A DNA stretch of 64,000 nucleotides, taken from positions 32,001 to 96,000 of the forward strand of contig JAOZFH010000063.1 in NCBI GenBank assembly GCA_027491415.1, in the 5' to 3' direction. Origin of the DNA: Thermoproteota archaeon. GTDB taxonomy: Archaea; Korarchaeota; Korarchaeia; Korarchaeales; Korarchaeaceae. Of the stretch, positions 2,014 through 54,125 are shown in pieces (the stretch's first letter is position 1; the number at the start of each line of letters is the position of its first letter). A model generated the notes under the pieces. The model ran no database searches, had not been told where the DNA came from, and saw only the letters and a program-made list of their open reading frames with translations. The position numbers and the translations under genes are program-made.

Positions 2014-2715
2014 ATGGGGGTGGCAAAAATGTCCTACAAGAAGATGTTATTGATCTCTATTTCAACACTACTTATAACTTTCACAGGTATTTTTATCGTA
2101 TCTGCGGCTGTTGGCCCTCCGATCGATGTTGGTGGGAAAAACTGTGCTACAAGCCTCTGCACCAGTCGGCTTCACAGAACAGGCGTAAACGGGTATATAT
2201 CAGTCTCTAACCCTTACGTCCCCTCTGGAGAGTTCACGGCGCGCTACTTTGGCATAAAGGATGGCTCTGGATTCATAGGCTTCGGATGGGGGAAGGGGTA
2301 TAACCCAGTATGCGGATACTTGAACTCTCCCACGGCCTACATAGACTATGTGAAGGTGAAGAAAAGTGGTAGCGAATACGATTGCATTGTTATAGGGGAG
2401 GTATCCACGACGTCTCACAGATTTGCCCTCGCCTTTGATATAGACGAGAGAAGATGGGAATTCTACCTCGACGGCTCCCTAGTCCACACCTTGCCGAGTG
2501 GCATCGCCCCGAAAGATGACGATGGAAAAGCCCTTTCTTACTCTGAATCCGGCGCTAATGCGGTCTATCCTGACATGAGCGGTCACTTCTACGACCTGTG
2601 GTACTACGAGGGTGAGTACGGAGGCTGGTGGGACGCCTTCTATCCAGTGGACGGCTCCGACTACTACAAAGTCAACAAAATAGCTAATTGGGAGTTTTAC
2701 GTCGTGAGGGGGTGA
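2014..2715 (+). CDS. Secreted beta-rich protein, G1-peptidase/neprosin-like (copy 1)
   Basis: N-terminal signal peptide; Cys/Gly/Tyr/Trp-rich; AT-rich gene; clear paralogue of 11783..12481 (GWGKGY, YxVxKxxNxEFYVxRG). Confidence 0.6.
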   Translation: MGVAKMSYKKMLLISISTLLITFTGIFIVSAAVGPPIDVGGKNCATSLCTSRLHRTGVNGYISVSNPYVPSGEFTARYFGIKDGSGFIGFGWGKGYNPVCGYLNSPTAYIDYVKVKKSGSEYDCIVIGEVSTTSHRFALAFDIDERRWEFYLDGSLVHTLPSGIAPKDDDGKALSYSESGANAVYPDMSGHFYDLWYYEGEYGGWWDAFYPVDGSDYYKVNKIANWEFYVVRG

Positions 2716-2720
2716 GGGAT

Positions 2721-3917
2721 ATGCGCGTAAAAATTGCGGTCTTCATGGCCGTGATTGCATCCCTAATCTTGCTCGTGTCCTTTTACTTCCTATCTCAGCA
2801 CCAGCAGGCGGCTCCACCGGTCGAGGGCCCATCCATCGGGCCCAGGTCTACAGCACCCACACTCCAGCCCGCTCAGGTTACTCCACCGAGCGGTAACTCG
2901 TCGATCGAGCCCGGATCTATAGTCCCGATATGGGCTCCCCCTGACGAGGACTACTGGGATCTCATACCGACCGAGATGGGGCTGGAGGCCTGGAGGAGGC
3001 ACGGAGGGGTCCTCCCGACATATGTGCCGAAGGGCCTGAGGTTCTTGGGCGTCGCCTGCTACTACGGGATGGAGGGCGCGAGGCAGGGAGCGCTGGATGA
3101 CCCCGAGCTGATCGTCCTAGAGTACGCCCTCGAGGGCAAGAACGTCTCGATCCACGGGAAGGTCTCCAGGCTCCTCCCGGGGCCGGACGTGGTCGTGAGC
3201 ATGGACTGGGGGGGGCTCGTCGGGAGGGGGAACGTGACCCTGGTTCGGGGGTGCCCCATGGAGGTTAGCCCCCCGGGGGAGGGCGTGGACTACTGGACGC
3301 GCCGGTGGACGACCCTGCCGGCCGCGGTCACGTTCCAAGTGGGCAACCTGACCTACACGATCTGGGGCCTGCTGCCGACGGGGGAGCTGGTCAGGATGGC
3401 GGAGTCCATGATCCCGGAGTCCGGGTGCAGGCCGGAGGACGTGAGGCCGGAGGTCCGCAGGGTGAGCGGGCGGGTGATACCGGTCGAGGACGTCCCGGAC
3501 GTCTTCGGCCTCAACCTCAGCCTGCCGAGGGTTCTGCTGGGTAATCTGGAGCTAAGGTTGGCGGTGCAGGACACCCTGGCTGGCGAGTCTCTGAGGGAGG
3601 TCACCCTGTTCTACTGCGACCACGAGTGCGGCCCCTACTCTCCCCCCGCCCCGTGGAACCCGCGAGCGCCAAACCTGACCGTCCTGATCGACACCCTCCC
3701 GGTCAACGCCACGGCCATGGAGTGGTTCCAGTACTCGATCGAGGTCGACGGGGTAAAGCTCTACGTCTGGCCCGAGGGGGCCTACCTACCGAACGGCGTC
3801 ACATTCTGGTTCGGAGGGCTGCACTACGAGATCCAGGGCTACTACCCCATCAAGGACCTCCTGGAAGTTGCCCGCGAGATAATAGCGCTTGGCTCGACGG
3901 CTCCGCCGGGGGAGTGA
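2721..3917 (+). CDS. Membrane-anchored protein with tandem DUF4367-like domains
   Basis: N-terminal TM and P/S-rich linker; LPTYVPKGL...YTIWGLLPTGELVRMAESM and a second repeat ending YEIQGYYPIKDLLEVAREI. Confidence 0.65.
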   Translation: MRVKIAVFMAVIASLILLVSFYFLSQHQQAAPPVEGPSIGPRSTAPTLQPAQVTPPSGNSSIEPGSIVPIWAPPDEDYWDLIPTEMGLEAWRRHGGVLPTYVPKGLRFLGVACYYGMEGARQGALDDPELIVLEYALEGKNVSIHGKVSRLLPGPDVVVSMDWGGLVGRGNVTLVRGCPMEVSPPGEGVDYWTRRWTTLPAAVTFQVGNLTYTIWGLLPTGELVRMAESMIPESGCRPEDVRPEVRRVSGRVIPVEDVPDVFGLNLSLPRVLLGNLELRLAVQDTLAGESLREVTLFYCDHECGPYSPPAPWNPRAPNLTVLIDTLPVNATAMEWFQYSIEVDGVKLYVWPEGAYLPNGVTFWFGGLHYEIQGYYPIKDLLEVAREIIALGSTAPPGE

Positions 3918-4070
3918 GCGAGCTGCTGGGTCACCATTAGGGTACGACTAGCGGCCTGGGCCCCCCTCGCCTAACCTTTTTCTGATGCTTAGGAGCCCTA
4001 GACCCGTCTTATTACCTCAAGCGTTGACCTCCAGCCCCAACGCTTTTTTATGCCTTGGAGTTGTGACGAG

Positions 4071-4535
4071 ATGGCTCACAGGGGACAACCAGCAGGCCGC
4101 TTGCCCGCGGCCTGGGCCCTTAGGTGCGGCCTGCACGACTGCCCGGGCTTCCTCGAGGATGTCCTCGGGTTCTTTCAGTCCGTACTGGGCCTCCTATGGC
4201 TCGAGGCCCTCCTCGCCGCGTCCTCGGACTGGCTGAGGGGCAGGCCGCTGCTGGCGTTCGCCCTGGGCTCCGCGGCCCTCTACTCCGTCCTCATGTCCCC
4301 GACCTCGGCCACGTTCCTGCACAAGGCCCTCGCGTATGGGAGCCGCTGGCCCCTAGAATATCTCGTTGGCCTCTTCCTCCCTCCGACCGTACTCTCGATC
4401 GCCTGGGGGTTCGGCGCCGCGGTCACATCCGGGCTGATCGGGATGGAGAGGGAGAGGAGGGAGCAGGGATACGTCATCACTGCCCTGGCGGCCCTGGCCG
4501 CCGGCCTGTTCATCTTCCTGATCACCCCACTGTGA
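4071..4535 (+). CDS. Small multi-TM membrane protein, family A (candidate immunity)
   Basis: Hydrophobic; WALxCGxxDC and LWLEALLAASSxWLRGRP shared with 6290..6778 and 52746..53240. Confidence 0.65.
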   Translation: MAHRGQPAGRLPAAWALRCGLHDCPGFLEDVLGFFQSVLGLLWLEALLAASSDWLRGRPLLAFALGSAALYSVLMSPTSATFLHKALAYGSRWPLEYLVGLFLPPTVLSIAWGFGAAVTSGLIGMERERREQGYVITALAALAAGLFIFLITPL

Positions 4536-4655: not shown

Positions 4656-5867
4656 TCACGCCACGACCGCCAGGAACAGGTGAATATTCTCCTCGTCGAG
4701 GATCCTGACGCCCCTCGGATACCTCCTGTGGGGCTTCCCCGCCTTGACCTCCACCCTCAGGCCGTCCGCGAGGGCGTCGACCTCGTGCGAGTTCCGGTAG
4801 TAGAAGACCTCGCCGAACCTCCTGAGGAGGTGGGCCTGGACCACCCACTCGTACAGGGCCCCCTCCAGGAAGTCGGTCACGGTCCAGATGGACATAGCCC
4901 CGGCCGTGAAGGGATCCAGGAAGAAGAACTTCCTCTCCTTCCGCCACACCACCCTGCCGCCCCTCCTCAGCATCGCGCTGCCCAAGACCATCAGGGCCCT
5001 CAGCACCTCCACGTACTCCCTGACGGTCCTGTGGGACACGGAGAGGTCGGAGCCTATGGAGGCGTAGGACACGGGCGAGGGAGCCTTCCTCAGTATGGAG
5101 GAGATGACCCCCCTGGCGAGCTGGGGGTCCCGGCCGGCCCTCAGGATCTCTCCCTCGAGCGACCTCACCGTGTACTCCACCGCCCTGGGGTCTCGGTTCA
5201 CAGAGAGGGGGAACCCACCGACCTCCAGATAATCCAGGAACAGCTCCCTTATCTCCCTGGACTTTGGGAGGAGCCTGGCCACGTCCCTGTCCAGGTCCCC
5301 CGTAGTCCTGACCTCCACGCCCATAACCCCGAGGAACTCCCTGAAGGAGAGGGGCCACGCCACCACCTCCCTACCCGAGCCCATCCTGCCCGGGAACAGC
5401 TCGGCCTCCCCCCTCAGCCTCAGCGACGAGGAGCCGGTCAGCACCAGCACGTCCCTCGAGAAGAAGCCCGCGTCCACGTACCCCTTTATGACCCTCCACC
5501 ACCCCCTCAGGCTCGTCACCTCGTCCAAGAACAGGTAGCTGGACCTCACGCCGGAGGCCCTCCTGAAGGAGTGGTACTCCTCCAGCATGGCCCTCAGCGA
5601 GCCGGGATCCGGGGCCAGGTCGAGGTTGATGTAGAGGATCGCCTCCGGCCTAACTCGCCTCAGGAGCTCGTCTATTAGCAGGTGAATGCCGGTCGTCTTG
5701 CCCACGAGCCTCGGTCCGATCAGGATGTTGAGGGAGTAGGGCTCCAGGCTTATCCGATCGAGCCAGGCGGGCCTCCACCTGATCTTCCTCCTCCTCCACT
5801 CCGTGATCACGGGGCTCTCCTTACCCACCCACCAGGGGTTGAGGAGGGGCAGGACGTCGGTCGGCAC
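4656..5867 (-). CDS. AAA_14/DUF4143-type ATPase
   Basis: GPRLVGKTT Walker A, LFLDEV Walker B, LTGSSS, GGFP, C-terminal EVD...VEVK. Confidence 0.85.
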   Translation of the reverse strand: MPTDVLPLLNPWWVGKESPVITEWRRRKIRWRPAWLDRISLEPYSLNILIGPRLVGKTTGIHLLIDELLRRVRPEAILYINLDLAPDPGSLRAMLEEYHSFRRASGVRSSYLFLDEVTSLRGWWRVIKGYVDAGFFSRDVLVLTGSSSLRLRGEAELFPGRMGSGREVVAWPLSFREFLGVMGVEVRTTGDLDRDVARLLPKSREIRELFLDYLEVGGFPLSVNRDPRAVEYTVRSLEGEILRAGRDPQLARGVISSILRKAPSPVSYASIGSDLSVSHRTVREYVEVLRALMVLGSAMLRRGGRVVWRKERKFFFLDPFTAGAMSIWTVTDFLEGALYEWVVQAHLLRRFGEVFYYRNSHEVDALADGLRVEVKAGKPHRRYPRGVRILDEENIHLFLAVVA

Positions 5868-6289
5868 TTGATACTTTGACTACCAAATAATATATAAATA
5901 GTTGGGAGAGTTGGTAACATGTAGTTCCCCGCAAGCGCGCGCCGTGTCGCGCGGGCTGCGCCCGGAACCTCGTCGGTTACGTCCGTAGCCGCGGACGACC
6001 CGGATATCCACTTAGGACCCGCAGCCTCCCGCGCCCCTTTATCAGCCACCGGGTATAGTTTCGCCAGGATGGTAGGCAGGGTTGCCTCCAGAGCCCTCGC
6101 TCTGGCCCTGGCGACGCTCTGAGGGCTCGGCTGCGCCCTCTTCGCCTCTTCGGGACCTCCAGCTTGGCATGAGAAGGTCGTTCTCGAGGTCACAAAGACT
6201 GACCTAGGGGGGAATCGGCATCAAACTCAGGCTGGGTGGGTGGAGATTCTGGGCTAACACTTTAGTGCCTTCTGAGGTGAGTAGAGGCG

Positions 6290-6778
6290 GTGCGTGAGGT
6301 GAACCGCCGCCAGCCGGCCGCCTGTGCGCTCACGATCCTGCTCCCGCCAGCCGCATGGGCCTTGACCTGCGGCTGGCTGGACTGCTCGTTCTTCCTCGTG
6401 GAGCTGGGAAGGCTCCTCCAGCCGATCCTCTCGTTGATCTGGCTCGAGGCCCTCCTCGCCGCGTCATCGAGCTGGCTGAGGGGCAGGCCGCTGCTGGCGT
6501 TTACCCTTGGCTCACTTGGCGTCTTCTCCACGCTGACTTCTCCCTTCCTGTGCCCAGAACTCCGCTGGATCCTGGCCGAAGGCCTTGCGGAGTCCCTGCG
6601 GGATCTCCTGGGCACTCCGCTCCTCCTCCCGCCCGCCCTCCTCTCCATCTCCTGGGGCCTCGGCGCCGCCGTGGCATCCGGCCTCCTTGGAGAGGGAAGG
6701 AGGGAGGCTGGATATGTGTTAACAGCCCTCGTCGCAGTCGTCGTGGCTCTTTTCACGTTCATGTTGGTCTGGGATTAA
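6290..6778 (+). CDS. Small multi-TM membrane protein, family A
   Basis: Paralogue of 4071..4535; long DNA tracts identical to 52746..53240. Confidence 0.7.
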   Translation: MREVNRRQPAACALTILLPPAAWALTCGWLDCSFFLVELGRLLQPILSLIWLEALLAASSSWLRGRPLLAFTLGSLGVFSTLTSPFLCPELRWILAEGLAESLRDLLGTPLLLPPALLSISWGLGAAVASGLLGEGRREAGYVLTALVAVVVALFTFMLVWD

Positions 6779-6879
6779 TCTCCAGGCCGAGCCTGTGCTG
6801 AGACCTGTCCCTGAGTCAACCACGGTAGCTCGCTGAACTAGGTGAAGCTCGGTGTCCCTTGCCCTCGCGCGTCTCGCGC

Positions 6880-7297
6880 GGACGGCCAAGACCTCACCTG
6901 GCTGAGCCATATCACATGGGGGGTCGCACTGCGGGTGGACCTAAACGTGGCCCGTGGCCACAAGCTACGTCTGCGAGCCCGTCTACGGCTGGGAGGCGCG
7001 GCAGGACGGTTGGGGCAGTCCCCACCCAGCGAGCGACTACGACCGCTACCACGTGAGGCTCTGGAAGGTCCACAAGTGGTGCTACGGCAGGGTCGACGTG
7101 GTGGGGCAGGCCCACGTGGACACAAATTTCCCTCACAGGGCCGTCTTATTCGAAGCCGCGGAGGAAGAGGCCGTCAAGGCCTTCAGCCTCTAACTCCCGG
7201 CTACGAGGACTGGATGCCGGAGGGGGAGGTCATCTGGCTGGGCAACTACGACAAGGGAGGTAACGGCTGGGCCGACATCATAAGGCACGATGGGTAA
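6880..7297 (+). pseudogene. Decayed C-terminal fragment of LssY_C-like secreted protein
   Basis: YVCEPVYGWE...RYHVRLWKVHK...VVGQAHVD, then a frameshift to DWMPEGEVIWLGNYDKGGNGWADIIRHDG*; internal stop and frameshifts; homologous to 13430..13558 and 53293..53821. Confidence 0.6.
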
Positions 7298-7383
7298 CCT
7301 CAGCCGCCTTCTTCCTCACTATTTTCTGAAAAAACTTAGGAACTTCGGTCAAGCTTATTACTTCGGCCCGCTTTCAGATCCGC

Positions 7384-7884
7384 GTGGGCTGGAGAGACGC
7401 CTCGGCCTTCCTCTACATCTGGCTCGCCCTGCTCCTCTTCATGGCCCTCGCCCCTCCCCTGGCGGGCCTCCTCGCCAGGTGCAGAACCGCCATGGGAGTC
7501 GCCTGGACCCTGACTGGCGACCTCGCGTACCGTCCTCCCGGGCTCCTCTTCACCGTCCCCGAGTCCCTCAGGCTCGCGTACGAGCTGTCCACCCTCCTGT
7601 TCGTCCCTCCCATCATAGCCGCCCTGGCTTCCCTGTCGAGGCCCCTTAGGGACGAGCCTGCAGCGGCCTTCCTCCTTGGGTTCCTCACGTTCTCCCTTAG
7701 CCCGTTCAGCTGGCTGCGTGCCAGGCCGCCCTACCACATCGTCATGCTTGCCGTCTCCACCATCTGGGGCCTGGGGTGCGCATCCCTGACCAAGGCGGAG
7801 GATCCAAGGGACCCCTGGGCTCGCGTGGGGTACCTCGTCCTCTTCATCACCTGGTGGTTCTCCCTCGGCGGCCTGATGGACTAG
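7384..7884 (+). CDS. Small multi-TM membrane protein, family B (candidate immunity)
   Basis: WRDASAFLYIWLAL, LFVPP, IWGLGCA, EDPRDPW; TTATTAC box about 40 nt upstream. Confidence 0.7.
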   Translation: MGWRDASAFLYIWLALLLFMALAPPLAGLLARCRTAMGVAWTLTGDLAYRPPGLLFTVPESLRLAYELSTLLFVPPIIAALASLSRPLRDEPAAAFLLGFLTFSLSPFSWLRARPPYHIVMLAVSTIWGLGCASLTKAEDPRDPWARVGYLVLFITWWFSLGGLMD

Positions 7885-8063
7885 GGGCCCGTCTCGGCTC
7901 TCCGTCCTCCTGAGTCTCGATGACCTGGTCTCTCCTCTCCGTTCGGTAGACCAGTCGGTTGAGGCAAGCCTGTGGCGACTCATTGGGGCGCGATCCGTTC
8001 CATCGGTTTGGAGCGGAACCAGCCCCCGGAGACGTCTTATTGCCCGGCGGCCCCCCTCCCGAC

Positions 8064-8524
8064 GTGTCCTGGAGGGACGAGCCCGGATTCTTCTACACCT
8101 GGCTGGCGCTCGCCGCTCTATTGACCGCGGCCCGCCTGGCCCTCGAGTTCAGGTTGCGCGACCCCTTCTTGGAGGCCGTTTACTATCTCTCCATCATGCT
8201 GTACCTCCCTCCGGTGTTTGCCACCCTGGCCTCCCTCTCCGGGCCCCTCAGGGGAGAGTCCCTGGCGGCCTTCACCCTCGGCATCTACACATACTCCGCC
8301 TCGCCCGTGCCCGGGGCTCCGCTCGGCCTCCTGGCCTGCCTCGCCCGCCGGTGCGGCTCGTTGAGCTGGCCCACGTATCCCTAGCCTTGGTTCTGGACCT
8401 GATCTGGGGCCTAGGCTGCGCCCTCCTCGCCTCGTCAAGGAGGCCCTGGGACCTCAGGGCCCTCCCAGCCTATCCAGTCCTGTTCCTCACCTGGCGATAT
8501 GGTCTGACCCTATTGATCGACTAG
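8064..8524 (+). pseudogene. Family B membrane protein, frameshifted
   Basis: VSWRDEPGFFYTWLAL start; homology continues in another frame (DLIWGLGCALLASSRRPWDL...LID*) after ~8380. Confidence 0.65.
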
Positions 8525-8635
8525 AATCCTAATTCTGGTACGTGGATGGCGAGGGCCCCACGAGTCCAGGATCTCCCCAGGTATCGGAACCGCCACGATT
8601 TTTTATCACCCAGGCGCCTCAGAAGGTAGATCAGC

Positions 8636-9028
8636 TTGGGACTGGAGAGGGCCGACTTCCTGAGGGCCAGGGCTGCCGCCTTCTTGGAGGCCGCCAGGTC
8701 GGACCTCTCTAGGGGAGACTACGACCTGGTCCTCTTCCACGCCGAGCAGGCCATCCAGCTGTGCCTGAAGCACCTGATATTCTCGAGAGTAGGGGACTTC
8801 CCAAAGGCCCACTCCCTAGTACGCCTGATAAGGGAGGCCCTGAAGCTGGGGGGAATCCCTGGCCTGAGGGAGCTCTACGAGGAGAACCTAGAGATGATCT
8901 ACCTGCTGGAGGAGGCCTACATCTCCTCCAGATACCTTCCCCACAGCTACGGCAGGGACATAGCCGAGAGGGCCCTGAGGTTCGCTGAACACGCTCTGGG
9001 GGTGTTGGGGTGCCTGAGGAGGGCCTGA
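8636..9028 (+). CDS. HEPN-domain protein
   Basis: LFHAEQAIQLCLK...PKAHSL...LEEAYISSRY. Confidence 0.9.
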   Translation: MGLERADFLRARAAAFLEAARSDLSRGDYDLVLFHAEQAIQLCLKHLIFSRVGDFPKAHSLVRLIREALKLGGIPGLRELYEENLEMIYLLEEAYISSRYLPHSYGRDIAERALRFAEHALGVLGCLRRA

Positions 9029-9369
9029 GCCTCGTGGATCTCGAGCTGGAGAGGCTGAGGGAGTGGAGGAGGTACTTGGAGGATCCGCTGAGGTACGCCC
9101 GGAGGATGAGGGAGGTGGCTAGGAGGGTAGACCCAGAGGCCAGGGTCATCCTATACGGCAGCAGGGTGTCTGGCGAGGCCAGGCCCGACAGCGACGTTGA
9201 CGTGCTCGTGGTAACGAGGGTGGCGGGGGACGCGTGGGCGAGGGCCAGGCTGAGGGTTGAGATAGCCAGGGAGATCGGAGACTACACGCCCTTCGAGATC
9301 CACATAGTCACGCCGGAGGAGTTCGAGCGCTGGTACGGCAGGTTCATCGGAGACCACATTGAGGCGTGA
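9010..9369 (+). CDS. Minimal nucleotidyltransferase (MNT)
   Basis: ILYGSRVSGEARPDSDVDVLVV, PFEIH. Confidence 0.9.
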   Translation: MPEEGLSLVDLELERLREWRRYLEDPLRYARRMREVARRVDPEARVILYGSRVSGEARPDSDVDVLVVTRVAGDAWARARLRVEIAREIGDYTPFEIHIVTPEEFERWYGRFIGDHIEA

Positions 9370-9612
9370 GGCACGCACCCCAGCCAGGAGGGGCAAAAGA
9401 CTGTCTCCTCCTGGACGCCAAGAGCAGGATATCCAGCATCTCTCGTAGCAGCCCGCCGACTTCTGATGTTGCTATGGAAGTCAGAAGTTAGGTGATGGGT
9501 ATAGGGACCAGCCATGCGGCGCGCGAAGAAGTCCCGAGTCGGCGATGCTGCTCGCGACGGTAGACCCCCCAGTCGCGGTCCATGAGGGGGCTCAGCCCAG
9601 CCTGGCCACGGG

Positions 9613-10272
9613 TCAGGCGGCCAGGGCGCCCCAGTAAAGTGCCAGGGCCCACGCCACAGTGACTGCCGCGAGCAGGGCCCCGATCCCCCTCCTCTCCTCC
9701 CCGAGGATGCCCGTGAGCATTGAAGCCGAGAGCCCGAAGGCCACGCCGGGGATCCCCCCCCAGATGAGGAAGAATATGGCGGCCTCGAGGGTCCCGCGGC
9801 CCAGGGTGAAGTCGACGAGGCCCTGGGACGCGAGGGCGGAGAAGAGCGCGGGGCCCGCCAAGACTCCCGCGGTCAGGGGCCTCCCGTAGAGGTCCTTGTG
9901 GGTGGCTAGGAGGAGCCAGAGCGTCCAAGACGCCACAACGATAGGCTGCAGCAGGTCGTAGGATGGGCACACTGTCGGAGGGAGTCGGCAGGCGCCGAAG
10001 CCGTACCTGTAGGCCCAGTAGATGGGAGAGACAGCCAGGGTGGCCAGCCACAGCGTTAAGGAGGTGTAAAAAGCCCTCCCTCCTATCGGGATTGACCTCG
10101 AGCGGGCGACCGAGGCAGCGAGGGGCGCGGCTACCACGTGGGTGCAGAGGAGGAGCGCCAGGGGGGCGGGGCCCCTCACCCCAACTCTAAGCCAGAGCAG
10201 TAAGGGAATGGGTATGGCGACCAGCCATGCGGCCAAGATTAGATGGAATAGGCTTAACCCATCCTCACTCAC
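9613..10272 (-). CDS. Multi-TM membrane protein
   Basis: Several hydrophobic segments; the C-terminus (GLSASMLTGILGEERRGIG) resembles family A. Confidence 0.65.
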   Translation of the reverse strand: MSEDGLSLFHLILAAWLVAIPIPLLLWLRVGVRGPAPLALLLCTHVVAAPLAASVARSRSIPIGGRAFYTSLTLWLATLAVSPIYWAYRYGFGACRLPPTVCPSYDLLQPIVVASWTLWLLLATHKDLYGRPLTAGVLAGPALFSALASQGLVDFTLGRGTLEAAIFFLIWGGIPGVAFGLSASMLTGILGEERRGIGALLAAVTVAWALALYWGALAA

Positions 10273-10462
10273 TTGATACCCCCCATTCCTAGCGTACGTA
10301 CGCGGATAAGTTAAAAAATAAAAAACACAACAGGAAATACCATGTTAATAAAAGCTCTTAATTCCCCGATCACATCCCTCAGTTCTTCATCGACCTGAAA
10401 CCCTGGGATCTATTAGAGAGTGGGTCAAACAGAATAAACACCTGTCGGCTCCAGGGGCCCCA

Positions 10463-11776
10463 CTACCCACCTATTATCGACTCGGCCACCCTTAGGATCT
10501 CCTCGAGCGGGTAGTACCCCTGGATCGTGTAGGCGAGCCCCTTGAACCAGAATTCCACCCTGGTCGGGTAGTACTCGACCCTGGGCCACACGTATACAGT
10601 CACACCGTCGATCACGATCTCGTCTGCAGACTCCGGGGGGACGAGCCCGCCCTCAGACAGAGCCTCCACCCAGATCGTCAGGTTCTGAGCGTCGGGGACC
10701 CAGGGCGCCGGGACGTTGTACACCGCGCACGGGTGGTCCGCGTAGGCCAGGATTACCTCCCTGACGGCCCACTCCCCCGCCCCGATCTCCCTCACCATCG
10801 CCGCCTCGAGCCTCAGCCCATCCGGCACGTACGTTGGGAGCACCAAGCCGGCGCCCTCCGGCACCGGCTCGCCCGCCGCCCTGTGCCTATCCAGCTCCCT
10901 CTTCAGCGCCTCCATGGCTTCCTGTAGCGAGACGAGGTACCCCTGAACCCTGTAGACCTCCGGCCTCAGGGTCGACTTGGGGCAGCCCTCGGGGGGAGCG
11001 ATGGACTCGATCACCCTGTACAGCTCCCCCTCCGGGAGGTAGGCCTCCACCGTGTAGTACAGGTCTCCCACCTGGATCTCTGCGTACCCCGGCTCTAGAT
11101 CTGGGACCCCGAAGTAGAGAGACGCGGTCGTCGTGCATGTGATCCTGCCTAGGAAGGGCGTGATCCGGTAGGGGCAGCCTCTGATTGTGCCATCATATCC
11201 CAGCTCCAGGTTCATCTTGCCCCTGCCCGCCCTCAGAACCATCTCTGGGCCACTCATCGCGTAGGTGACGTAGGGGATCGCGAGGGTCACGTTTCGACCT
11301 GGGAACGCGTAGACTACCGCGAACACTTCGGGAACCCCCTGCTTCTCCGCCTCTCTCAGCTGATTCATCGCTTGGCTGTGGTTTCCCGCCCCGACCACCA
11401 TGACCCCAACGAGCCTCATCCCTCCTGAGTAGGAGGGGAGCCTGACTCCCAGATCCGTCAGGGCAGGCATCGCCTCGTCGGCTGGCAGGATGAAGCCCGT
11501 CTCCAGCGGGGGTACCCAGGAGGACGTTGGGCAGGACTCCCCAAGAGCCTTCAGAGCTGAGTCGTTGAGCCGCAGCCAGGGAGGCTCCTCCTCGGCGTCA
11601 TTGGCCAGCTGGGGCTCTGAGGATTCAGAGGGTTGGGTCATGCACCCAGGGGCAGATGGCGTCGGGGACAGCCTCCTGACGACCTCCGAACTCCGGCGCG
11701 CGACGTGAAGCAGGCAAGCCAGCGCGATTAGAGAGAACGCAAGTGCGATTAAGAGTAACCTGCGACCATCAGCCAT
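10463..11776 (-). CDS. Membrane-anchored tandem DUF4367-like protein (paralogue of 2721..3917)
   Basis: N-terminal TM; LPTYVPDGL, PAPWxPxAxNLT, FWFxGLxYxIQGYYP shared with copy 1. Confidence 0.7.
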   Translation of the reverse strand: MADGRRLLLIALAFSLIALACLLHVARRSSEVVRRLSPTPSAPGCMTQPSESSEPQLANDAEEEPPWLRLNDSALKALGESCPTSSWVPPLETGFILPADEAMPALTDLGVRLPSYSGGMRLVGVMVVGAGNHSQAMNQLREAEKQGVPEVFAVVYAFPGRNVTLAIPYVTYAMSGPEMVLRAGRGKMNLELGYDGTIRGCPYRITPFLGRITCTTTASLYFGVPDLEPGYAEIQVGDLYYTVEAYLPEGELYRVIESIAPPEGCPKSTLRPEVYRVQGYLVSLQEAMEALKRELDRHRAAGEPVPEGAGLVLPTYVPDGLRLEAAMVREIGAGEWAVREVILAYADHPCAVYNVPAPWVPDAQNLTIWVEALSEGGLVPPESADEIVIDGVTVYVWPRVEYYPTRVEFWFKGLAYTIQGYYPLEEILRVAESIIGG

Positions 11777-11782
11777 GCCACA

Positions 11783-12481
11783 TCAACCTCTCTTGACGTA
11801 AAATTCATAGTTCGTTACTTTCTGAACGTAAAAGCACGTGCCGCTCTCATGCTTTGATAGCACATCCCAAAGGCACCAACCTCCGCAGTTGGGTATGCTG
11901 AAATAATGTAAAAGTTTGAAGTGGCCGTAAGCATTTATCCTACATCCGCAGTTAGAGTCGCAAGATATCTCAGATACACCACGCACAAAACCTTTCTCAT
12001 AATTTGGCCCAGAACCGGCGGGTAATCTGAGCTTAGTAACACCATCGATGATTATCTTCCATTTATTTATAGGTTGGTCAAACCATATCCGGATGTGATG
12101 ATGCCCTGAAGAAGCTGTTCCTAGAACGTAGTACCCGTAAGTTGTCCCTCTCCTATGTTCCGCATAAAATGTAGGCTCTGTTAAGCAACCAGCGGGCGAG
12201 TATCCCTTACCCCAGCCAGCTTGTATCCACCCGCCGTTCTGAATTAGTAGGTACCTAGCCGTTTTATCGTAACTCGAACAGTAGATCCCCGACGGATTGT
12301 AGGTATAGATATAGCCAGATACGCCCTGTCTGTCAATTCTATCGATGCAAGTAGTAAGTTCGCAGTTAGATCCGTAATACCATGCGGGAGTGGAATATAC
12401 TTCCAAGACAATACCGCTGAAGCTAAGAGTAAGCAAATAAACTAGGCATACCACGTAACTTTGTCTAAAGCTCGCGGTCAT
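11783..12481 (-). CDS. Secreted beta-rich protein, G1-peptidase/neprosin-like (copy 2)
   Basis: Signal peptide, WIQAGWGKGY, RGVSE, many Cys; AT-rich. Confidence 0.65.
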   Translation of the reverse strand: MTASFRQSYVVCLVYLLTLSFSGIVLEVYSTPAWYYGSNCELTTCIDRIDRQGVSGYIYTYNPSGIYCSSYDKTARYLLIQNGGWIQAGWGKGYSPAGCLTEPTFYAEHRRGTTYGYYVLGTASSGHHHIRIWFDQPINKWKIIIDGVTKLRLPAGSGPNYEKGFVRGVSEISCDSNCGCRINAYGHFKLLHYFSIPNCGGWCLWDVLSKHESGTCFYVQKVTNYEFYVKRG

Positions 12482-12607
12482 CTATTATCTATGTTTTCTC
12501 CAAATTTTCCTTTTAACCCTTACGCTTGCGCGCTCTAGATGGACGAGATAGAAGAGAAGAGAATAGAGGTTCTGGTTCTCTTCTCGCGGTCTCAGAGAGA
12601 GGAGGAC

Positions 12608-12740
12608 TCAGCTGGGCAGGGACGTGAAGGAGACCAGCCACCCGCCGAACAGGAGAAAGAATCCCACGGCGGCTCCGACATCCCTAGGGTCCTCTGACCT
12701 GGCCAGGAGCGCGCAGCCTAGGCCCCAGAGCAGTTCAGGG
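12608..12740 (-). pseudogene. C-terminal remnant of a family B membrane protein
   Basis: Translates as ELLWGLGCALLARSEDPRDVGAAVGFFLLFGGWLVSFTSLPS*. Confidence 0.6.
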
Positions 12741-12954
12741 GTCAGGGGGGAGCTCCTCACGAGGGTCTTCAGGGAGCTGGAGGGCTACGGGGATAGGAAG
12801 AGGTGGGAGGAGGCGCTGGAGGAGTGCGAGAGGAGGGGCCTCCTCTAGGCTGCTCGCCACGCCCCCCGGGCGACGCGCCGAGAGGCTGTCGGAGACCCGA
12901 GCGCTCCAACCCTCCGCCAAGCATAACGAGGTTGTGGGGGGCCTGCAGAGACTC

Positions 12955-13347
12955 TCAGTCCACCATGAGGAAGGGCACACGCCATGCGAGGAGGAGCAGA
13001 GAGTAGCCCAGGAGTGCGCTCAGGTCCCAAGGCCTCTCGGACCTAGCAACGAGCGCTGATCCGAGGGAGAAGGGGAGGCTCAGGGCGAGCCCTATGAGGC
13101 CCCAGCGGATCACCCCGAAGGGGGCGAAGAGGTAGGTGAGGAGACCCAACAGGAGGGCGAGGGCTGGCCTCCTCCTGATTGGCCCTGTGAGGCAGGCCAC
13201 GGCCGAGACCGCCGGGGGGACGTAGAGGATCGTCAAGACGTAGGACAGATCCCGGAGGATGGGGTCTACGCCCGTGACGCCCAGCGCGAGGAGGGCTATG
13301 AGCGCCAGCCAGGTGTAGAAGAACCCCGGCTCGTCCCTCCAAGGCAC
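12955..13347 (-). CDS. Small multi-TM membrane protein, family B
   Basis: VPWRDEPGFFYTWLAL, LYVPP, SERPWDL; TTATTAC box upstream. Confidence 0.7.
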   Translation of the reverse strand: MPWRDEPGFFYTWLALIALLALGVTGVDPILRDLSYVLTILYVPPAVSAVACLTGPIRRRPALALLLGLLTYLFAPFGVIRWGLIGLALSLPFSLGSALVARSERPWDLSALLGYSLLLLAWRVPFLMVD

Positions 13348-13429
13348 GCTGATGGCAGAGCAGGTCAAAGTAATAATTCTTTCTCAGAAAAACCTGGAGA
13401 AACAAAAAATGTAGGGAAGGGTTTGCGAG

Positions 13430-13558
13430 TTAACCATCGCACCTTGTCCTAGTGGCCCAGCCGTCGCCTCCCTCATCGTAGTTCCCCAGCCAGACCACCT
13501 CGCCCTCAACCACCCAGTCGTGGTAGTAGGGGGTCTCGAAGGCCTCCCTGAACTCCTG
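13430..13558 (-). pseudogene. Orphan LssY_C-like C-terminal tip
   Basis: QEFREAFETPYYHDWVVEGEVVWLGNYDEGGDGWATRTRCDG* matches 7190..7297. Confidence 0.65.
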
Positions 13559-13621
13559 TGCCATTAGATCGGTGCTCTCAGGCGCACTCTCCTCTCAAAA
13601 ATGGGGGAGGGTTGGGGGCCC

Positions 13622-14248
13622 CTACCCCTGGCCCGGAACCACCTCGAAGTCGTAAGTCTCGATCAGCGTGCCCGGCTTCGAGAGGGCGCCCCTCATTATC
13701 ACGTTGATCCTGTAGCGGCCCGGGGCGACTGCTTGGCCCACCTCCAGCGTGGCGTTGAGGACTTTCACCTCCCCCTCTTTCAGGGTGAACGCCGGGGAGG
13801 GCCGAATCGCCAGCCTGATCGCGGAGTCCCCCTCCCCGGCGACCAGCTCGAGTGCCTCGCCCTCTACCGGCGCCTCTGCAGAGAGGTTCACCTCCAGGGG
13901 CCCGGGGAACTTGCCAGGGGTCAGCCCCTCAGGAGGCGGGAGGTCCCTGAGTCGCGTTAGCGTTATCTCGGGCCTGAAGTCGCACTCCGGCTTGAAGCAG
14001 TAGACCTTGATGACGAAGGAGACCGCCTCGCCCTGCCTCACCACGCTGGGGAGTCCCTCGACGCTGGTCGTCATCAGGGATATCGGGGTCTCGGGTATGT
14101 CCTCCGGCGGGATGGTGGGAGGCGCCTTCGTGGCCTCCGGGCTGGCGGAGCCGAATGGGTACTGGATCCAGAGACCTAAGGCCAAGAGGGAGATGGAGGC
14201 CGCGGTCAACAGTAGGAGGCTAGACCGCCCCATGAGCATCACCCCCAA
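13622..14248 (-). CDS. Membrane-anchored/secreted Ig-like protein
   Basis: N-terminal hydrophobic segment, P-rich linker, beta-strand pattern (VAPGRYRINV); coupled to 14239..15051. Confidence 0.6.
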   Translation of the reverse strand: MGVMLMGRSSLLLLTAASISLLALGLWIQYPFGSASPEATKAPPTIPPEDIPETPISLMTTSVEGLPSVVRQGEAVSFVIKVYCFKPECDFRPEITLTRLRDLPPPEGLTPGKFPGPLEVNLSAEAPVEGEALELVAGEGDSAIRLAIRPSPAFTLKEGEVKVLNATLEVGQAVAPGRYRINVIMRGALSKPGTLIETYDFEVVPGQG

Positions 14249-15021
14249 ATCTTTTCCCCGTCGCCATAATCACATGTGGGATTCGTATACTGTCCTACTT
14301 GGATGTAATTAAATCCAAGCCTTACAATGTCGTAGTTCTGGTTGCAGTTATCCGTGGGCTCCCTGTAGGCGTAGCCCTGCTCGGCCTGCCTGAAGTAGGA
14401 GGACCCCCTGGGTTTGTACGAGATGGCCGGGTTAAAGTAAACGGGCTTAAGCCAACCCCCGTACTCCCCACCCTTCTCAGCTATTGAAGCAGGTGCGTGA
14501 TATCCCGTGGAATCCACGTCAAAGAACTCAGTGCCCAAGTACTCATCGCCCCCCTTGACAAACGACCAGTATCCGTCGCCCACGTGAATTGCCGAGTAGT
14601 ACATGTAGGTGTAGGTGGGGCCTGCTGATCCGTCGGGGCCCTTTCTTACGACATAATCGCCCCCAGCTGGGGGGAGGTAGCAGTAAAACCACGCACCTCT
14701 TGGCCGCTCGTGTGCCGTGAGGTAGCCGACTTGGATCCAGTATCCATTGGCTAGGTGAGACCCTATCCAATAATAGTGCGCTTCTGGGTCTGGGACGTTG
14801 TAGTCCGGAACTATGTACACCCTGGTTTTGAACCCCTCACTCCAATACGTGGTTGTCCCTCCCCTGGCACCGACAGATGGATCAAGCATTCCTGCCAAGT
14901 TAAGAGGATTCTCTTGACGGTCTAGGGGTTGCGTTGAGGTTTGGGCAATAATAGAGGCTGTAACCAGGGGAGAGAGGAGACCTAAAATCCCCAAAACTGC
15001 CAAACACCTTCTCTCATCCAT
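14239..15021 (-). CDS. Secreted beta-rich protein, G1-peptidase/neprosin-like (copy 3, divergent)
   Basis: Signal peptide (MDERRCLAVLGILGLL), YWIG...WIQVGY, SIAEKG. Confidence 0.55.
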   Translation of the reverse strand: MDERRCLAVLGILGLLSPLVTASIIAQTSTQPLDRQENPLNLAGMLDPSVGARGGTTTYWSEGFKTRVYIVPDYNVPDPEAHYYWIGSHLANGYWIQVGYLTAHERPRGAWFYCYLPPAGGDYVVRKGPDGSAGPTYTYMYYSAIHVGDGYWSFVKGGDEYLGTEFFDVDSTGYHAPASIAEKGGEYGGWLKPVYFNPAISYKPRGSSYFRQAEQGYAYREPTDNCNQNYDIVRLGFNYIQVGQYTNPTCDYGDGEKIWG

Positions 15022-15521
15022 ATCTCCACCCCGCAGGCTCCTCGCCTGCAAGAGTTTTGGTTAAATAATCGAATTTAACTTCTGCGCTTTAATACATTTT
15101 CAATACTTTCATGAAACTTTTCTTATATTATGTTACATCTCCACGCCACTCTGGGAGGGATCGTTCTGTATGAAGGGACACGGAGCTACGCCGGGCTGAG
15201 CATAGAGGCACGCCAGGGCCGCTACGGCCGTGGGTGATGAAGGGGAAGTTCAGGACGGTCACCGGTCCGAGTGTGACCTGTCAGTCGTCGCCTGGACACG
15301 GACTCGCTGAAGGGACGCTCCTCCAGCCCGTGGAGCTCGAGTAGACCCTCCAGATCCCCCTCTGAGACCTCTCTCACGCTCACGCCTGGCCGCGAATTGA
15401 GGTCGGGCACCCTCCTCGGGGCCCCAGCAAGGGCTTAAGGTTGGGGCGGCCGCCTCCTTGGGACGGCTGCGGAGGGCCCTGGGGGCAAGGTTTTTATCTC
15501 CGGACCCGCGAAGGCGAGTTG

Positions 15522-15595
15522 GGGCCCGTAGCTCAGTATGGTAGAGCGCCCGGCTCTTAACCGGGAGGTCGAGGGTTCGAAGCCCTCCGGGCCCG
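15522..15595 (+). tRNA. tRNA-Lys(CTT)
   Basis: GGGCCCG acceptor stem, cccgg-CT-CTT-AA-ccggg anticodon arm, GGTTCGAAG T-loop. Confidence 0.95.
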
Positions 15596-15669
15596 CTTCT
15601 CTCGCCTTTTCTCGTCTTTTCGAGCTTTCTCCTTCCGAATTTCCGTGAAACAAGCGACCTCGTGGCGAA

Positions 15670-51809: not shown

Positions 51810-52175
51810 TCAGTCCACGGGCGCAAGCTTCAACCCATACCTGACGAGCCTCTCGTAGTGCCCCCTGTTCCTGGTCATAAGGGGGAGGTCGTGGGAGATG
51901 GCTGAGGCGGCTACTATTACGTCCCTCTCATCTAGGGGCTCTCCCCTCCTCCTCAAGTCCCTGTAGATCTTCGCGGCGAGCCTCAATACCTCGTTGGAGG
52001 GATAAACTACCTTGAACACCCTCTCGAGTATCTCCTTGACCTCCCCGTAGTCCTCCCTCCCCCTCAGGAACTCGTACAGGGAGATCCAAGATATGAAGAG
52101 GTGTGCCCTGGGGAGGTGTCTCCTCCCCTTCTCAACGTCAATTAGAACGTCGGCGTCGATCATCACCCGCCTCAT
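51810..52175 (-). CDS. PIN-domain (VapC) toxin
   Basis: MIDADVLID, SLYEF, DVIVAASA, MTRNRGHY. Confidence 0.9.
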   Translation of the reverse strand: MRRVMIDADVLIDVEKGRRHLPRAHLFISWISLYEFLRGREDYGEVKEILERVFKVVYPSNEVLRLAAKIYRDLRRRGEPLDERDVIVAASAISHDLPLMTRNRGHYERLVRYGLKLAPVD

Positions 52176-52745: not shown

Positions 52746-53240
52746 TCAGTCCACAACGAGCGCGAGGTTGAACAGGCCGCCGGCAAGCGCGACCAGGGCC
52801 GTCAGGACGTAGCCCGCCTCCCTCCTTCCCTCTCCAAGGAGGCCGGATGCCACGGCGGCGCCGAGGCCCCAGGCCAGGGAGAGGAGGGCGGGCGGGAGGA
52901 GGAGCGGAGTGCCCAGGAGATCCCGCAGGGACTCCGCAAGGCCTTCGGCCAGGATCCAGCGGAGTTCTGGGCACAGGAAGGGGGACGTGAACGTGGAGAA
53001 CACGCCGAGCGATCCCAGGAGGAAGGCCGGGGCTGGCCTCCCCCGCAACCACTCCGAGGAGGCCGCCAACAGGGCCTCGAGCCAGATCAACGAGAGGATC
53101 GGCTGGAAGAGCCTCCCCAGCTCCACGAGGAAGAACGGGCAGTCCCGCCAGCCGCAGGCCAGGGCCCAAGCCAGGGGAGGGAGCAGGATCGTCAGGGCCC
53201 AGGCCGCGGGCAGGCGGCCCGATCTCCGCTCTTCGGGCAC
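52746..53240 (-). CDS. Small multi-TM membrane protein, family A
   Basis: Near-duplicate of 6290..6778. Confidence 0.75.
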   Translation of the reverse strand: MPEERRSGRLPAAWALTILLPPLAWALACGWRDCPFFLVELGRLFQPILSLIWLEALLAASSEWLRGRPAPAFLLGSLGVFSTFTSPFLCPELRWILAEGLAESLRDLLGTPLLLPPALLSLAWGLGAAVASGLLGEGRREAGYVLTALVALAGGLFNLALVVD

Positions 53241-53292: not shown

Positions 53293-53821
53293 CTAGGGGT
53301 AGAGCCACTTCGGCGCCCAGCCGTCGTTGTAGTGCTCTGGGTCCCCGGGGCTCCCCTCGGCGTTGTGCAGGTAGACCTGCTCGGCGTAGTCCCAGCCCCA
53401 GAAGGCGTCGGACGCCTCGTCCGTACCCGCCCTTATGGACCTTCCACAGCCTCACGTGGTACCTGTAGTATGTTGGGTGCTCCTTCCTTAGTGAGTAGGC
53501 ATCAGGCCTCCACCCGTAAATCGGGTCGTAGACGTAGTTCGGGTTGCCAGAAGCATAGTCCCACCCGTGGCCAATGAAGGTCGTGTGGACCGTGTAGGGG
53601 TACAGGTCTCCGCTGGACTTCTCCCACGGCAGGTTTATCGGGTCGGCCACGCAGTAGTGGAACCCAGTCTGGCTGGACCCGTAGCGGGCCCAGCTGTACC
53701 TGGGGTAGCTGTAGCGCGCGAGTCTGCTCGGCCAAAAGAGGGAGATCTCCCCTTTGCACGTTACTAGAACGATCCCCACCCCTTTCAGCCGCCTCTCAAC
53801 TACGTTTGGGTTCCCATCCAC
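53293..53821 (-). pseudogene. Decayed LssY_C-like secreted protein
   Basis: ADPINL...HGWD...YVYDPIYGW...RYHVRLWKVHK, then a frame change to DAFWGWDYAEQVYLHN...YNDGWAPKWLYP*. Confidence 0.6.
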
Positions 53822-54003
53822 CTCTAGGAGTTATGCGCTGTTCCTCGCCTCTTACGCTCTTTCCGCTGAGTTTCAGTTCCACCCTCGGATGTCAAAGTGG
53901 CAGGAACGGCTCTCATAGGCGACAGCAGTACACCGGCACCGGGGCATCCTCACGATGCCCGACTCAAGCTTTAAGTAGTGGATGCTGGCACGAGTCGACT
54001 GGT

Positions 54004-54125
54004 GGGGCCGTGGTCTAGCTTGGCAGGATGAGGGCTTCGGGAGCCCTTGGCCAGGGTTCAAAATCCGAACCTCATATGTTCGGATTCCGAACGAGGTTCG
54101 GATGGAAGTCCCTGCGGCCCCACCA
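54004..54125 (+). tRNA. tRNA-Pro(CGG) with non-canonical T-loop intron (59/60; 54063..54108)
   Basis: GGGGCCG/CGGCCCC acceptor plus ACCA; agggc-TT-CGG-GA-gccct arm; BHB formed by helix TTCA/TGGA with AAA and AGT bulges. Confidence 0.9.

Follow-up and report, generated by a model that had tools for sequence, protein, structure and literature searches.

Orphan toxin-immunity arrays are a feature of the CDI, Rhs and T6SS loci of bacteria. In these arrays 3' fragments, accompanied by partner genes of their own, come after the gene of an exported protein and its small partner; the partners outlive the exported gene and the copies recombine with each other. The immunity proteins against pore-forming colicins and class II bacteriocins are small and polytopic, are encoded beside the gene of the secreted protein, have their own promoter and often occur as orphans. 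In the archaeal order Thermococcales, the hypervariable VARTIG module is centered on a large protein with Ig domains, of which the C-terminal one is hypervariable; its description likens the module to polymorphic toxin systems and gives its function as unknown (PMC8416519).

Here we describe an archaeal gene pair that encodes a putatively exported protein, S, and a small membrane protein, and we are confident that the two genes form a module that duplicates and decays in the manner set out below. Our tentative reading, to which we give somewhat less than an even chance, is that S is a secreted effector and that the membrane protein, AB in Korarchaeia, is its immunity partner. As in CDI, Rhs and T6SS arrays, a full-length gene and its partner are accompanied by 3' fragments with partners (in the DNA studied here, in sister genome G005 and in the G299 array of a second archaeal class), partner genes outlive the exported gene, and copies recombine. 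In contrast to the CDI, Rhs and T6SS loci, the module is found in an archaeon and pairs S with polytopic membrane proteins. S has no known toxin domain, its export would apparently follow the general Sec route, and its fragments do not represent variable C-terminal toxin domains that follow a conserved junction motif. VARTIG is likewise archaeal, lineage-restricted and shuffled by recombination, and joins a secreted protein to variable downstream genes, whereas S lacks an Ig domain and its downstream genes belong to one membrane-protein superfamily (PMC8416519). AB shares with colicin and bacteriocin immunity proteins its small polytopic build, a secreted-protein neighbour, a promoter-like box of its own and orphan copies; it has no sequence or fold similarity to them, and S is unlike a pore-former.

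We analyzed a window of 64 kb from the genome of a hot-spring member of the Korarchaeia (G000). All genomes compared here were binned from metagenomes; a single frameshift may therefore be an assembly error, whereas a truncation is not. No public sequencing runs turned up for 6200-8600. The features of the window that bear on the module are as follows.

4050..4535 (+): family A membrane gene, 161 aa, intact; follows another secreted pair (2014-2715, 2688-3917), not S.
6290..6778 (+): family A, 162 aa, intact; lies just upstream of the truncated S'; dN/dS 0.40.
6884..7297 (+): S' fragment, residues ~180-323 (tblastn and alignment to the sister-genome copy); N-terminal 180 residues missing, at least two frameshifts.
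7384..7884 (+): family B membrane gene, 166 aa, intact; TTATTA box 29 nt before the GTG start; dN/dS 0.51 versus G005.
8064..8521 (+): second B gene, with a frameshift between 8354 and 8387.
9613..10272 (−): distant A-like gene, 219 aa; follows a paralogous secreted pair (11783-12481, 10463-11776).
12635..12733 (−): B remnant, residues ~119-151.
12955..13368 (−): family B, 137 aa, intact; dN/dS 0.11.
13430..13564 (−): S tip, limited to residues 281-323; an ORF of 44 codons that comes right behind an unrelated secreted-protein gene.
15522..15596 (+): tRNA-Lys(CTT), bordering the 2-15 kb island.
52746..53240 (−): family A, 164 aa, intact; follows the 53-kb S' pseudogene; dN/dS 0.58.
53293..53821 (−): S' pseudogene of the A-linked subtype, without the N-terminal domain; frameshift after residue ~252, tip in another frame.
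54002..54076 (+): tRNA-Pro(CGG), beside the 53-kb S'-A pair.

A first-pass annotation had assigned the fragments at the three S places to one protein family. A tblastn search with an intact 323-aa paralogue from the same genome (L001; contig C11, 6255-7226, −) bears this out: the fragments are homologous to each other. At the first place two segments (6945-7184 and 7193-7294, +) match residues 202-286 and 290-323 with 65% and 50% identity (joint E 8e-33); one frameshift lies between them, and a further piece in the third frame begins at about 6884. The second place (13555-13433, −) matches residues 281-323 (58%, E 8e-9) and has an identical position in G005. The stop of 13622-14248 is in frame with this tip, which we attribute to chance, the frame being shared in the window and not in G005. 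The third place (53731-53417, −) matches residues 142-252 (50%, E 3e-29), its C-terminal tip continues in another frame to a TAG at 53293, and syntenic copies exist (L008/L023 and L003). Such pieces are not toxin tips of the variable sort: they are ordinary 3' pieces of a whole S gene, homologous up to the stop codon, with 58-68% identity among the window tips and only two tip subtypes seen. The orphan pieces are thus not polymorphic, unlike CDI or Rhs tips, and this counts against the effector reading. We also rejected a displacement array, in which new cassettes push older tips downstream; full-length genes have orphans on either side, and the orphans show no polymorphism. Neighboring genes are of toxin-antitoxin type (HEPN/NTP_transf_2, PIN/VapB), and a further neighbor encodes an AAA_14-DUF4143 ATPase with a match to PADLOC PDC-S01, surroundings that favor the effector reading.

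Directly after each of the three fragments, on the same strand, lies a membrane gene, as first proposed (3/3, gaps of 52-86 nt): B at 7384 follows the S end at 7297 by 86 nt, B at 13368 follows 13430 by 61 nt, and A at 53240 follows 53293 by 52 nt. With 8 membrane genes or remnants per 64 kb, the chance of finding all three within 90 nt is roughly 2e-7. The same count of 8 in the window, remnants included, agrees with the earlier estimate of at least seven. Families A and B align as one superfamily (AB) of small, 5-helix membrane proteins that has no match in Pfam, NCBIfam or PADLOC, and a model of AB found no fold relative at E≤0.001 with Foldseek; a word-index search, which may miss distant relatives, placed AB in 11 clusters among 5.8 billion. 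A TTATT[AG] box precedes the GTG start by 29 nt in 4/4 B genes checked, and this motif occurs only 20 times in the window, both strands together. Every S stop codon is followed by a T-run. This layout suggests that AB has a promoter-like box of its own, placed after a terminator-like T-run of S. Family A is also found behind secreted-protein genes of two other kinds, and such association of AB with unrelated secreted proteins is a further point against the effector reading.

Across the class Korarchaeia, S was found in 4/40 genomes and AB in 3/40, all of one genus. Within this genus AB follows S at every S locus seen (4/4 in G000, 4/4 in G005, 1/1 in G007), which amounts to only ~5 distinct S loci because several are common by descent. 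The linkage extends beyond fragments, as the first-pass annotation would lead one to expect: membrane genes also follow the intact S on C11 and a near-intact S in G005, whose last 13 codons are frameshifted. The B gene at 12955..13368 is 98% identical to the B gene after this near-intact S. The subtype of S goes with that of its partner, in that A-linked copies have their own tip type (1 locus versus 4). The intact C11 cassette (S-B-B') is an insertion of ~2.6 kb that is absent from the sister genomes: its flanks are separated by 46 nt in G007 and by 41 nt in G006, and a PIN gene occupies the site in G005.

Loss has fallen mostly on S, in line with what had been read from the window: in G000 one S is whole and three are broken, and eight AB genes are whole and three broken. 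G007 has no whole S but keeps three AB genes intact; two of these form a tandem, and no S match was found beside them. Purifying selection on the membrane genes, which their supposed retention implied, holds for five of six G000-G005 pairs (dN/dS 0.11-0.58); the sixth departs from it with a value of 1.16, on only 8 changes.

S combines an N-terminal beta-rich domain with a C-terminal domain in which His239, His260 and Glu276 are invariant and Asn175, Asp214, Arg241, His270 and Glu279 nearly so. Its N terminus resembles a Sec-type signal peptide and would direct export, and the conserved residues suggest a hydrolase-like or metal-binding active site that may act on a component of the cell envelope. 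S accounts for 45 representative clusters among 1.84 billion. LssY_C hints aside, Pfam, NCBIfam and PADLOC returned no match to a known toxin, peptidase or lipase family; no solved fold relative was found, a sequence profile search of solved structures giving chance-level matches only (E≥0.25), and the S alignment had no relatives among the metagenome contigs and viral contigs scanned. The lack of a match to a known toxin family or solved fold also counts against the effector reading.

The fragments had been described as LssY_C-like (PF14067), and this description stands in part. By Pfam's rule S is not a member, because every match lies below the gathering cut-off of 25 bits: 11.9 for intact S, 14.8 for the window fragment, 16.6 for the Actinomycetota member and 19.1 for the best of the family. 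Five of 25 members match at E≤1 (best E 2.4e-4), and no Pfam family other than LssY_C recurs among the members of S. S does carry the motifs on which the likeness was based (ADPINL, RYHVRLW), which by themselves do not prove membership; of two true LssY_C proteins (L035, 233 bits; L036, 135 bits), both have RHH(V/A)RFW and one has DPVN (the other QPVS). The order DP(I/V)N(L), GW, R-x-H-(V/A)-R-(L/F)-W, VG...D, a later His and acidic residues is common to S and LssY_C. Alignment of S to these two proteins with hhalign gave 90 collinear columns at a probability of 2% and E 0.024, with an LssY_C profile two sequences deep, and the S HMM reaches them at E 3.3 only. In a protein-language-model look-up the nearest named clusters were all LssY_C (0.81-0.83, at the level of a lead only). 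Both LssY_C examples have Thr or Ser in place of His260, a residue invariant in S, and they have N-terminal transmembrane anchors where S has the predicted signal peptide and an extra N-terminal domain. On these comparisons S bears only a remote likeness to LssY_C. A PAP2 domain, expected in proteins of the LssY type, was not confirmed in the two examples. In one case only, that of the Actinomycetota S homologue, a PAP2_3 gene adjoins S. A literature search on LssY and PF14067 returned unrelated matches only and nothing on LssY_C function.

Arrays parallel to those of Korarchaeia occur in the unrelated, methane-cycling Methanosarcinales and Methanophagales, where an S gene and its 3' copies are accompanied by small membrane genes of another family ("MEKK"). 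A MEKK gene with 4-5 TM segments lies on the same strand at 7/8 S loci, the eighth being cut by a contig end, and 9/12 MEKK matches (5 genomes) are in S loci. The G299 array reads S - MEKK - 3' copy - MEKK - MEKK - 3' copy, and up to three membrane paralogues stand beside one S gene. In Methanophagales the 3' copies are 88-95% identical. AB and MEKK have no homology detectable by hhalign, which is a further point against the effector reading. The recurrence bears on whether S and its neighbors are coupled at all. Their association might merely reflect one recombination-prone accessory island beside tRNA genes, home to both S pseudogenes and a growing orphan membrane family: the island is pieced together, and dS between sister genomes varies greatly (0.01-0.69), AB occurs without S at the C9 locus and in the G007 tandem, and the Actinomycetota S homologue has no such membrane neighbor. 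We nevertheless regard mere co-residence as very improbable, since S and AB adjoin at every S locus in the genus and the adjacency recurs with a different membrane family in another class.

In the methanogen-type homologues the S domain forms the N-terminal head of large surface proteins, in which a putative signal peptide, the N-terminal domain and the His/Glu domain are followed by NosD/beta-helix, PKD, FG-GAP or PPC domains. This architecture looks more like that of a surface or nutritional exoenzyme than that of a toxin, and so speaks against the effector reading. Korarchaeia are regarded as fermenters of peptides. S might be a secreted hydrolase used in feeding or envelope remodeling, with the membrane protein anchoring, maturing or activating it at the cell surface and no conflict involved. 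The link of S to a small membrane gene in two classes would suit such a role, as would the occurrence of family A after other secreted proteins, in the manner of a general partner. An anchor without cargo should decay, however, and the membrane genes persist intact, with dN/dS mostly <1, beside dead S copies and in a genome without whole S. Anchoring also has no need of 2-3 membrane paralogues per S, and the membrane genes have a predicted promoter of their own behind the terminator-like T-run. We consider this role for S rather unlikely. The presence of up to three paralogues per S fits an immunity repertoire better than an anchor.

Copies of S also carry traces of exchange. The full-length S of G005 is 100% identical to the orphan fragment of its own genome over ~168 aligned nt, with flanks at 58-93%, and a neighboring 60-nt block is 98% identical to the window fragment and only 77% identical to the G005 fragment. 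Such a mosaic indicates that full-length and fragment copies exchange sequence by gene conversion. The fragments themselves have dN/dS of 0.21-0.45 (41-80 codons per fragment) and keep coding-type GC3 (0.79-0.88), and truncated fragments occupy matching places in two species. We ascribe the low dN/dS to gene conversion; it could also mean that the fragments are still used, which counts against the effector reading. One such use would be as silent cassettes, donors that vary an exposed or secreted S by gene conversion, with the membrane genes accompanying them as partners. The mosaic, the coding-type signature and the shared truncations all agree with this, but conversion from a live gene into dead fragments gives an identical picture, the window fragments are frameshifted, and the counts are small; we find it distinctly improbable. 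Silent-cassette variation could hold together with an effector-immunity role.

Under the effector reading, S would act on a component of the cell envelope through its hydrolase-like or metal-binding site, and AB, transcribed from its own promoter just past the S terminator, may shield the producer's own membrane in the way of an immunity protein. Whichever role S has, membrane-gene copies very probably multiply by segmental duplication of a unit comprising the 3' end of S, the intergenic promoter and the membrane gene, which leaves orphan S tails in front of membrane genes. S often goes missing or breaks, selection keeps the membrane genes, and gene conversion still passes sequence between fragments and full-length S. 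In its most extended form, the proposal is that S together with the small membrane genes makes up a Sec-dependent effector-immunity (kin-discrimination) system, so far undescribed, of Korarchaeia, Methanosarcinales and methane-oxidizing Methanophagales, in which immunity genes are amplified with 3' tails that feed gene conversion into the expressed effector; taken as a whole, we judge this unlikely.

The known tools of inter-archaeal competition are very few. Here two unannotated families make up a gene pair that recurs and changes fast in three groups of archaea, among them partners in the anaerobic oxidation of methane. Should S prove to be an effector that acts on the envelope, with the membrane proteins as its shields, the pair would be a testable new system of antagonism and would hint at the function of the LssY_C domain. 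If it serves kin discrimination, it would be an archaeal counterpart of the CDI and Rhs orphan arrays and would give a first functional handle on the wider LssY_C-like fold. If the membrane protein is instead an anchor or activator, archaea would have a new way of holding exoenzymes at their surface. Under either reading, membrane-gene duplication accounts for the orphan gene tails as its by-products.

The three S fragments of the window belong to one protein family, as the first-pass annotation had proposed: a tblastn search of the window with L001, an intact 323-aa S paralogue on another contig of the same genome (C11, 6255-7226, minus strand; the genome is an archaeal bin of 1.78 Mb in 63 contigs), matched all three places:

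6945-7184 and 7193-7294, plus strand: S fragment 1, residues 202-286 and 290-323, one frameshift between them (tblastn)
from ~6884, plus strand: additional short piece of S fragment 1, in the third frame
13555-13433, minus strand: S fragment 2, residues 281-323 (tblastn)
53731-53417, minus strand: S fragment 3, residues 142-252 (tblastn)
ending at 53293, minus strand: tip of S fragment 3, in a different frame

A small membrane gene directly follows each fragment, also as described, on the same strand and 52-86 nt downstream in 3/3 cases, and the earlier estimate of at least seven such genes agrees with a window count of 6 whole and 2 broken copies. The membrane families A and B can be aligned with each other; they have a core in common, and most members end in Asp. 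On this similarity we treat them as a single superfamily, AB. Both S/AB clusters in the window adjoin tRNA genes. A T-run, the form that archaeal terminators usually take, comes after all S stop codons. In 4/4 B genes checked, a TTATT[AG] box lies 29 nt upstream of the GTG start (V-P/G-W-R); with both strands counted, the 64-kb window has just 20 occurrences of this motif. Judged by these signals, the AB genes appear to be transcription units of their own, independent of S and probably leaderless.

The S family is small, with only 45 relatives at E<=1e-3 among 1.84 billion representative proteins. The AlphaFold2 model of intact S (mean pLDDT 85.3, pTM 0.82) contains a signal-peptide-like N-terminus (residues 1-33, modelled at low confidence), a beta-rich domain (~40-137) and a C-terminal alpha/beta domain; no resembling fold was found among solved structures. 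Across 25 aligned members W201, W219, H239, H260 and E276 are invariant, and P173, N175, D214, R241, H270 and E279 nearly so. His239 and His260 lie on adjacent strands (237-246 and 253-262) of one hairpin and, because these strands are neighbours, would face each other; H270, E276 and E279 are on the loop and helix that follow. In the model, the two histidines together with H270, E276 and E279 look like a putative metal or catalytic site.

S had been described as LssY_C-like, which holds for the order of its motifs but not for Pfam membership. Two true LssY_C proteins that we fetched show the same motif order, and the partial matches of S fall on successive segments of the Pfam model in the correct order; LssY_C is the sole recurring Pfam family among S members (5/25, best E 2.4e-4), with every match below the 25-bit cut-off. 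An hhalign comparison of S with the two LssY_C proteins gave 90 collinear columns at a probability of 2% (E 0.024), an S profile search did not find these proteins (E 3.3), and the clusters nearest S in a language-model look-up were LssY_C (0.81-0.83, at lead level only). On sequence comparison S is probably a remote relative of LssY_C rather than a member. A literature search found nothing on the function of LssY_C.

A Pfam scan covered 28 relatives; in the longer ones the S domain is N-terminal, with NosD/beta-helix (3 proteins), PKD (2), FG-GAP (1) and Ig-like domains or others known from surface proteins after it. One Methanophagales homologue has a PPC domain, as secreted peptidases typically do. 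The methanogen-type homologues are thus built like surface enzymes, which favours the main rival to an immunity reading, namely that S is an exoenzyme and the membrane protein its anchor or activator; partner genes that outlast S speak against it, and we regard it as possible but rather unlikely. One Actinomycetota bacterium has a short form that consists of a signal peptide and the C-terminal domain (S profile match E 3e-18). In this MAG (L009 1633-3372) the short homologue, of 241 aa, divergently adjoins a PAP2_3 membrane phosphatase gene (E 1e-29), a single case that hints at a lipid-related setting. The large S-domain proteins of the Methanophagales loci L053 and L054 begin, after the signal peptide, with two helix-turn-helix-like 'ITELHEEGLSEEEIAEEL' segments, odd in exported proteins; L006 has a weak Sigma70_r4_2 match (E 0.0012).

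S occurs in 4/40 and AB in 3/40 genomes of the class, all within the window's genus. Neither was found in genus member G008 (95% complete), and in G006 (72% complete) there are no more than scraps of S, on a 1.7-kb contig. An AB gene follows every inspectable S copy or fragment, 4/4 in the window's genome (G000), 4/4 in G005 and 1/1 in G007; these kin genomes are not independent, and the counts amount to only about five distinct loci because several are shared by descent. The expectation that intact or near-intact homologues would have the same partner was borne out on C11 and in G005, where a 329-aa S gene precedes a B gene. The A-linked S copies form a separate subtype with a distinct tip. 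AB genes are also found without S, as a lone gene on contig C9, as a tandem pair in G007, and behind two pairs of genes for other secreted proteins, the pairs being paralogous:

2014-3917, plus strand: secreted pair followed by a family A gene at 4050, without S
12481-10463, minus strand: secreted pair followed by an A-like gene at 10272, without S

The model of the C11 B protein (pLDDT 85.3) has five long helices packed in a bundle, for which a fold search gave no informative match. AB has no match in Pfam, NCBIfam or PADLOC, and a word-index search of 5.8 billion clusters, which distant relatives could escape, returned 11 proteins, all close.

S is also present in 11/79 genomes of the class containing Methanosarcinales and Methanophagales relatives. 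In 7/8 usable loci a gene of the MEKK family (named for its start; 140-175 aa, 4-5 TM by a simple hydropathy scan) lies on the same strand beside S or within ~2 kb of it, upstream or downstream and in up to 3 copies; the eighth locus is cut by a contig end. MEKK has no detectable homology to AB, and 9/12 of its matches, from five genomes of the class, fall within S loci. One genome (G299) has the order S (900 aa), MEKK, 3' copy, MEKK, MEKK, 3' copy, with the last 507 residues of S copied at 89% identity and the last 330 at 91%; another (G247) has part of S and three 3' copies, with a MEKK gene between the first two. Orphan tails before small membrane genes therefore belong to the S module and are not an accident of the window. 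That S and AB are associated by pure coincidence is hard to maintain given this second lineage, and we consider it very improbable.

The claim that S has decayed and the membrane genes are mostly intact is upheld by counts from genomes that are all metagenome bins, in which a single frameshift may be an error. In G000, S has 1 whole and 3 broken copies and AB has 8 whole and 3 broken ones; in G005 the numbers are 0 or 1 whole and 3 broken for S, and 8 whole and 1 broken for AB. The single S of G007 has an in-frame TAG and forms a fusion with a truncated A gene, alongside 3 whole AB genes and one remnant. G005:C12 shows synteny with the window's 2-15 kb island, in reshuffled order. On that contig the 329-aa S gene is whole but for a G-run frameshift 13 codons upstream of the stop, which may reflect an error in sequencing or a site prone to slippage, and the B gene after it is 98% identical to window B gene 12955-13368; in the window that S gene is lost, leaving a 43-residue tip. 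The frameshift lies at L022 7420-7486, and a similar altered tail occurs in NCBI protein P0006 of another relative. The S-B-B' cassette on C11 is located between a ThiS/MoaD-like and a MobA-like gene, flanks that are 46 nt apart in G007, 41 nt in G006 and 456 nt in G008; in G005 the site is occupied by a PIN-domain gene. It follows that the cassette was inserted or that the site is a hot spot.

Between G000 and G005 (34-219 codons per S or AB pair), dN/dS of AB was 0.11-0.58 in 5/6 pairs and 1.16 in the sixth, on 8 changes in total, as compared to 0.30-0.47 for other island genes and ~0.16 for two core-like neighbours. The S fragments gave 0.28, 0.21 and 0.45, and one 34-codon piece 1.4 on 13 changes; they do not look neutral. 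We attribute this to gene conversion. The full-length S of G005 is identical to that genome's own orphan fragment over ~168 aligned nt with flanks at 58-93%, and an adjacent 60-nt block is 98% identical to the window fragment and 77% to G005's own. The wide range of dS across the island (0.01-0.69) points to mosaic histories. A variation system with S fragments as donors, which may coexist with an immunity or an exoenzyme role, seems improbable.

The island is interspersed with HEPN/nucleotidyltransferase and PIN/VapB pairs and with an ATPase gene, and genes of the HEPN and PIN kinds occur across both S/AB clusters of the window:

952-1338: HEPN
8636-9369: HEPN and nucleotidyltransferase
51810-52524: PIN and VapB-like
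54582-54992: PIN
4656-5867, minus strand: AAA_14 and DUF4143 ATPase, PADLOC match (E 3e-32) to PDC-S01, a candidate family for defence, between two family A genes

Secreted proteins of 232-270 aa encoded at 2014-2715 (plus), 11783-12481 (minus) and 14239-15051 (minus) have a 'GGWIQ(A/V)G(W/Y)' type motif in common and no Pfam match. Their genes stand first in small cassettes whose last member is an AB gene or S tip, and have an unusually low GC3 of 0.46-0.61 against >0.8 in neighbours; they may be of foreign origin. A second paralogous group of secreted proteins (292-437 aa; 2688-3917, plus; 10463-11776, minus; 50257-51135, plus) shows a weak similarity to DUF4367 (E 0.046). A C-terminal 'Y.IQGYYP...L..(V)AE(S)I' motif is common to 2688-3917 and 10463-11776, each of which has a family A gene after it, and 50257-51135 ends in a looser version (WFDADTLLKIAESL). 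G005 has a third paralogue at a place where none is present in the window. At 28085-30218 (minus) a 39% GC block within a 60-65% GC region contains two ORFs (353 and 362 aa) without a PADLOC match and is probably a recent foreign insertion.

The simplest account of this anatomy would be segmental duplication of a unit made up of the 3' end of S, the intergenic promoter and the membrane gene. Extra or diverged membrane-gene copies would be the target of selection, with the S tails as passengers that later exchange sequence with live copies. Bacterial CDI, Rhs and T6SS loci have orphan toxin-immunity arrays, which the S module resembles in form; a variable tip is one defining feature of those arrays, whereas the S module is without one, is archaeal, comprises new protein families and apparently uses the Sec route. 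It also recalls the VARTIG module of Thermococcales (PMC8416519). The first-pass reading of a secreted toxin with retained immunity genes fits best, because the membrane genes multiply, outlive S, stay under selection and have their own promoter; tentatively, AB would have an immunity role and S would be a harmful secreted protein acting on the envelope.
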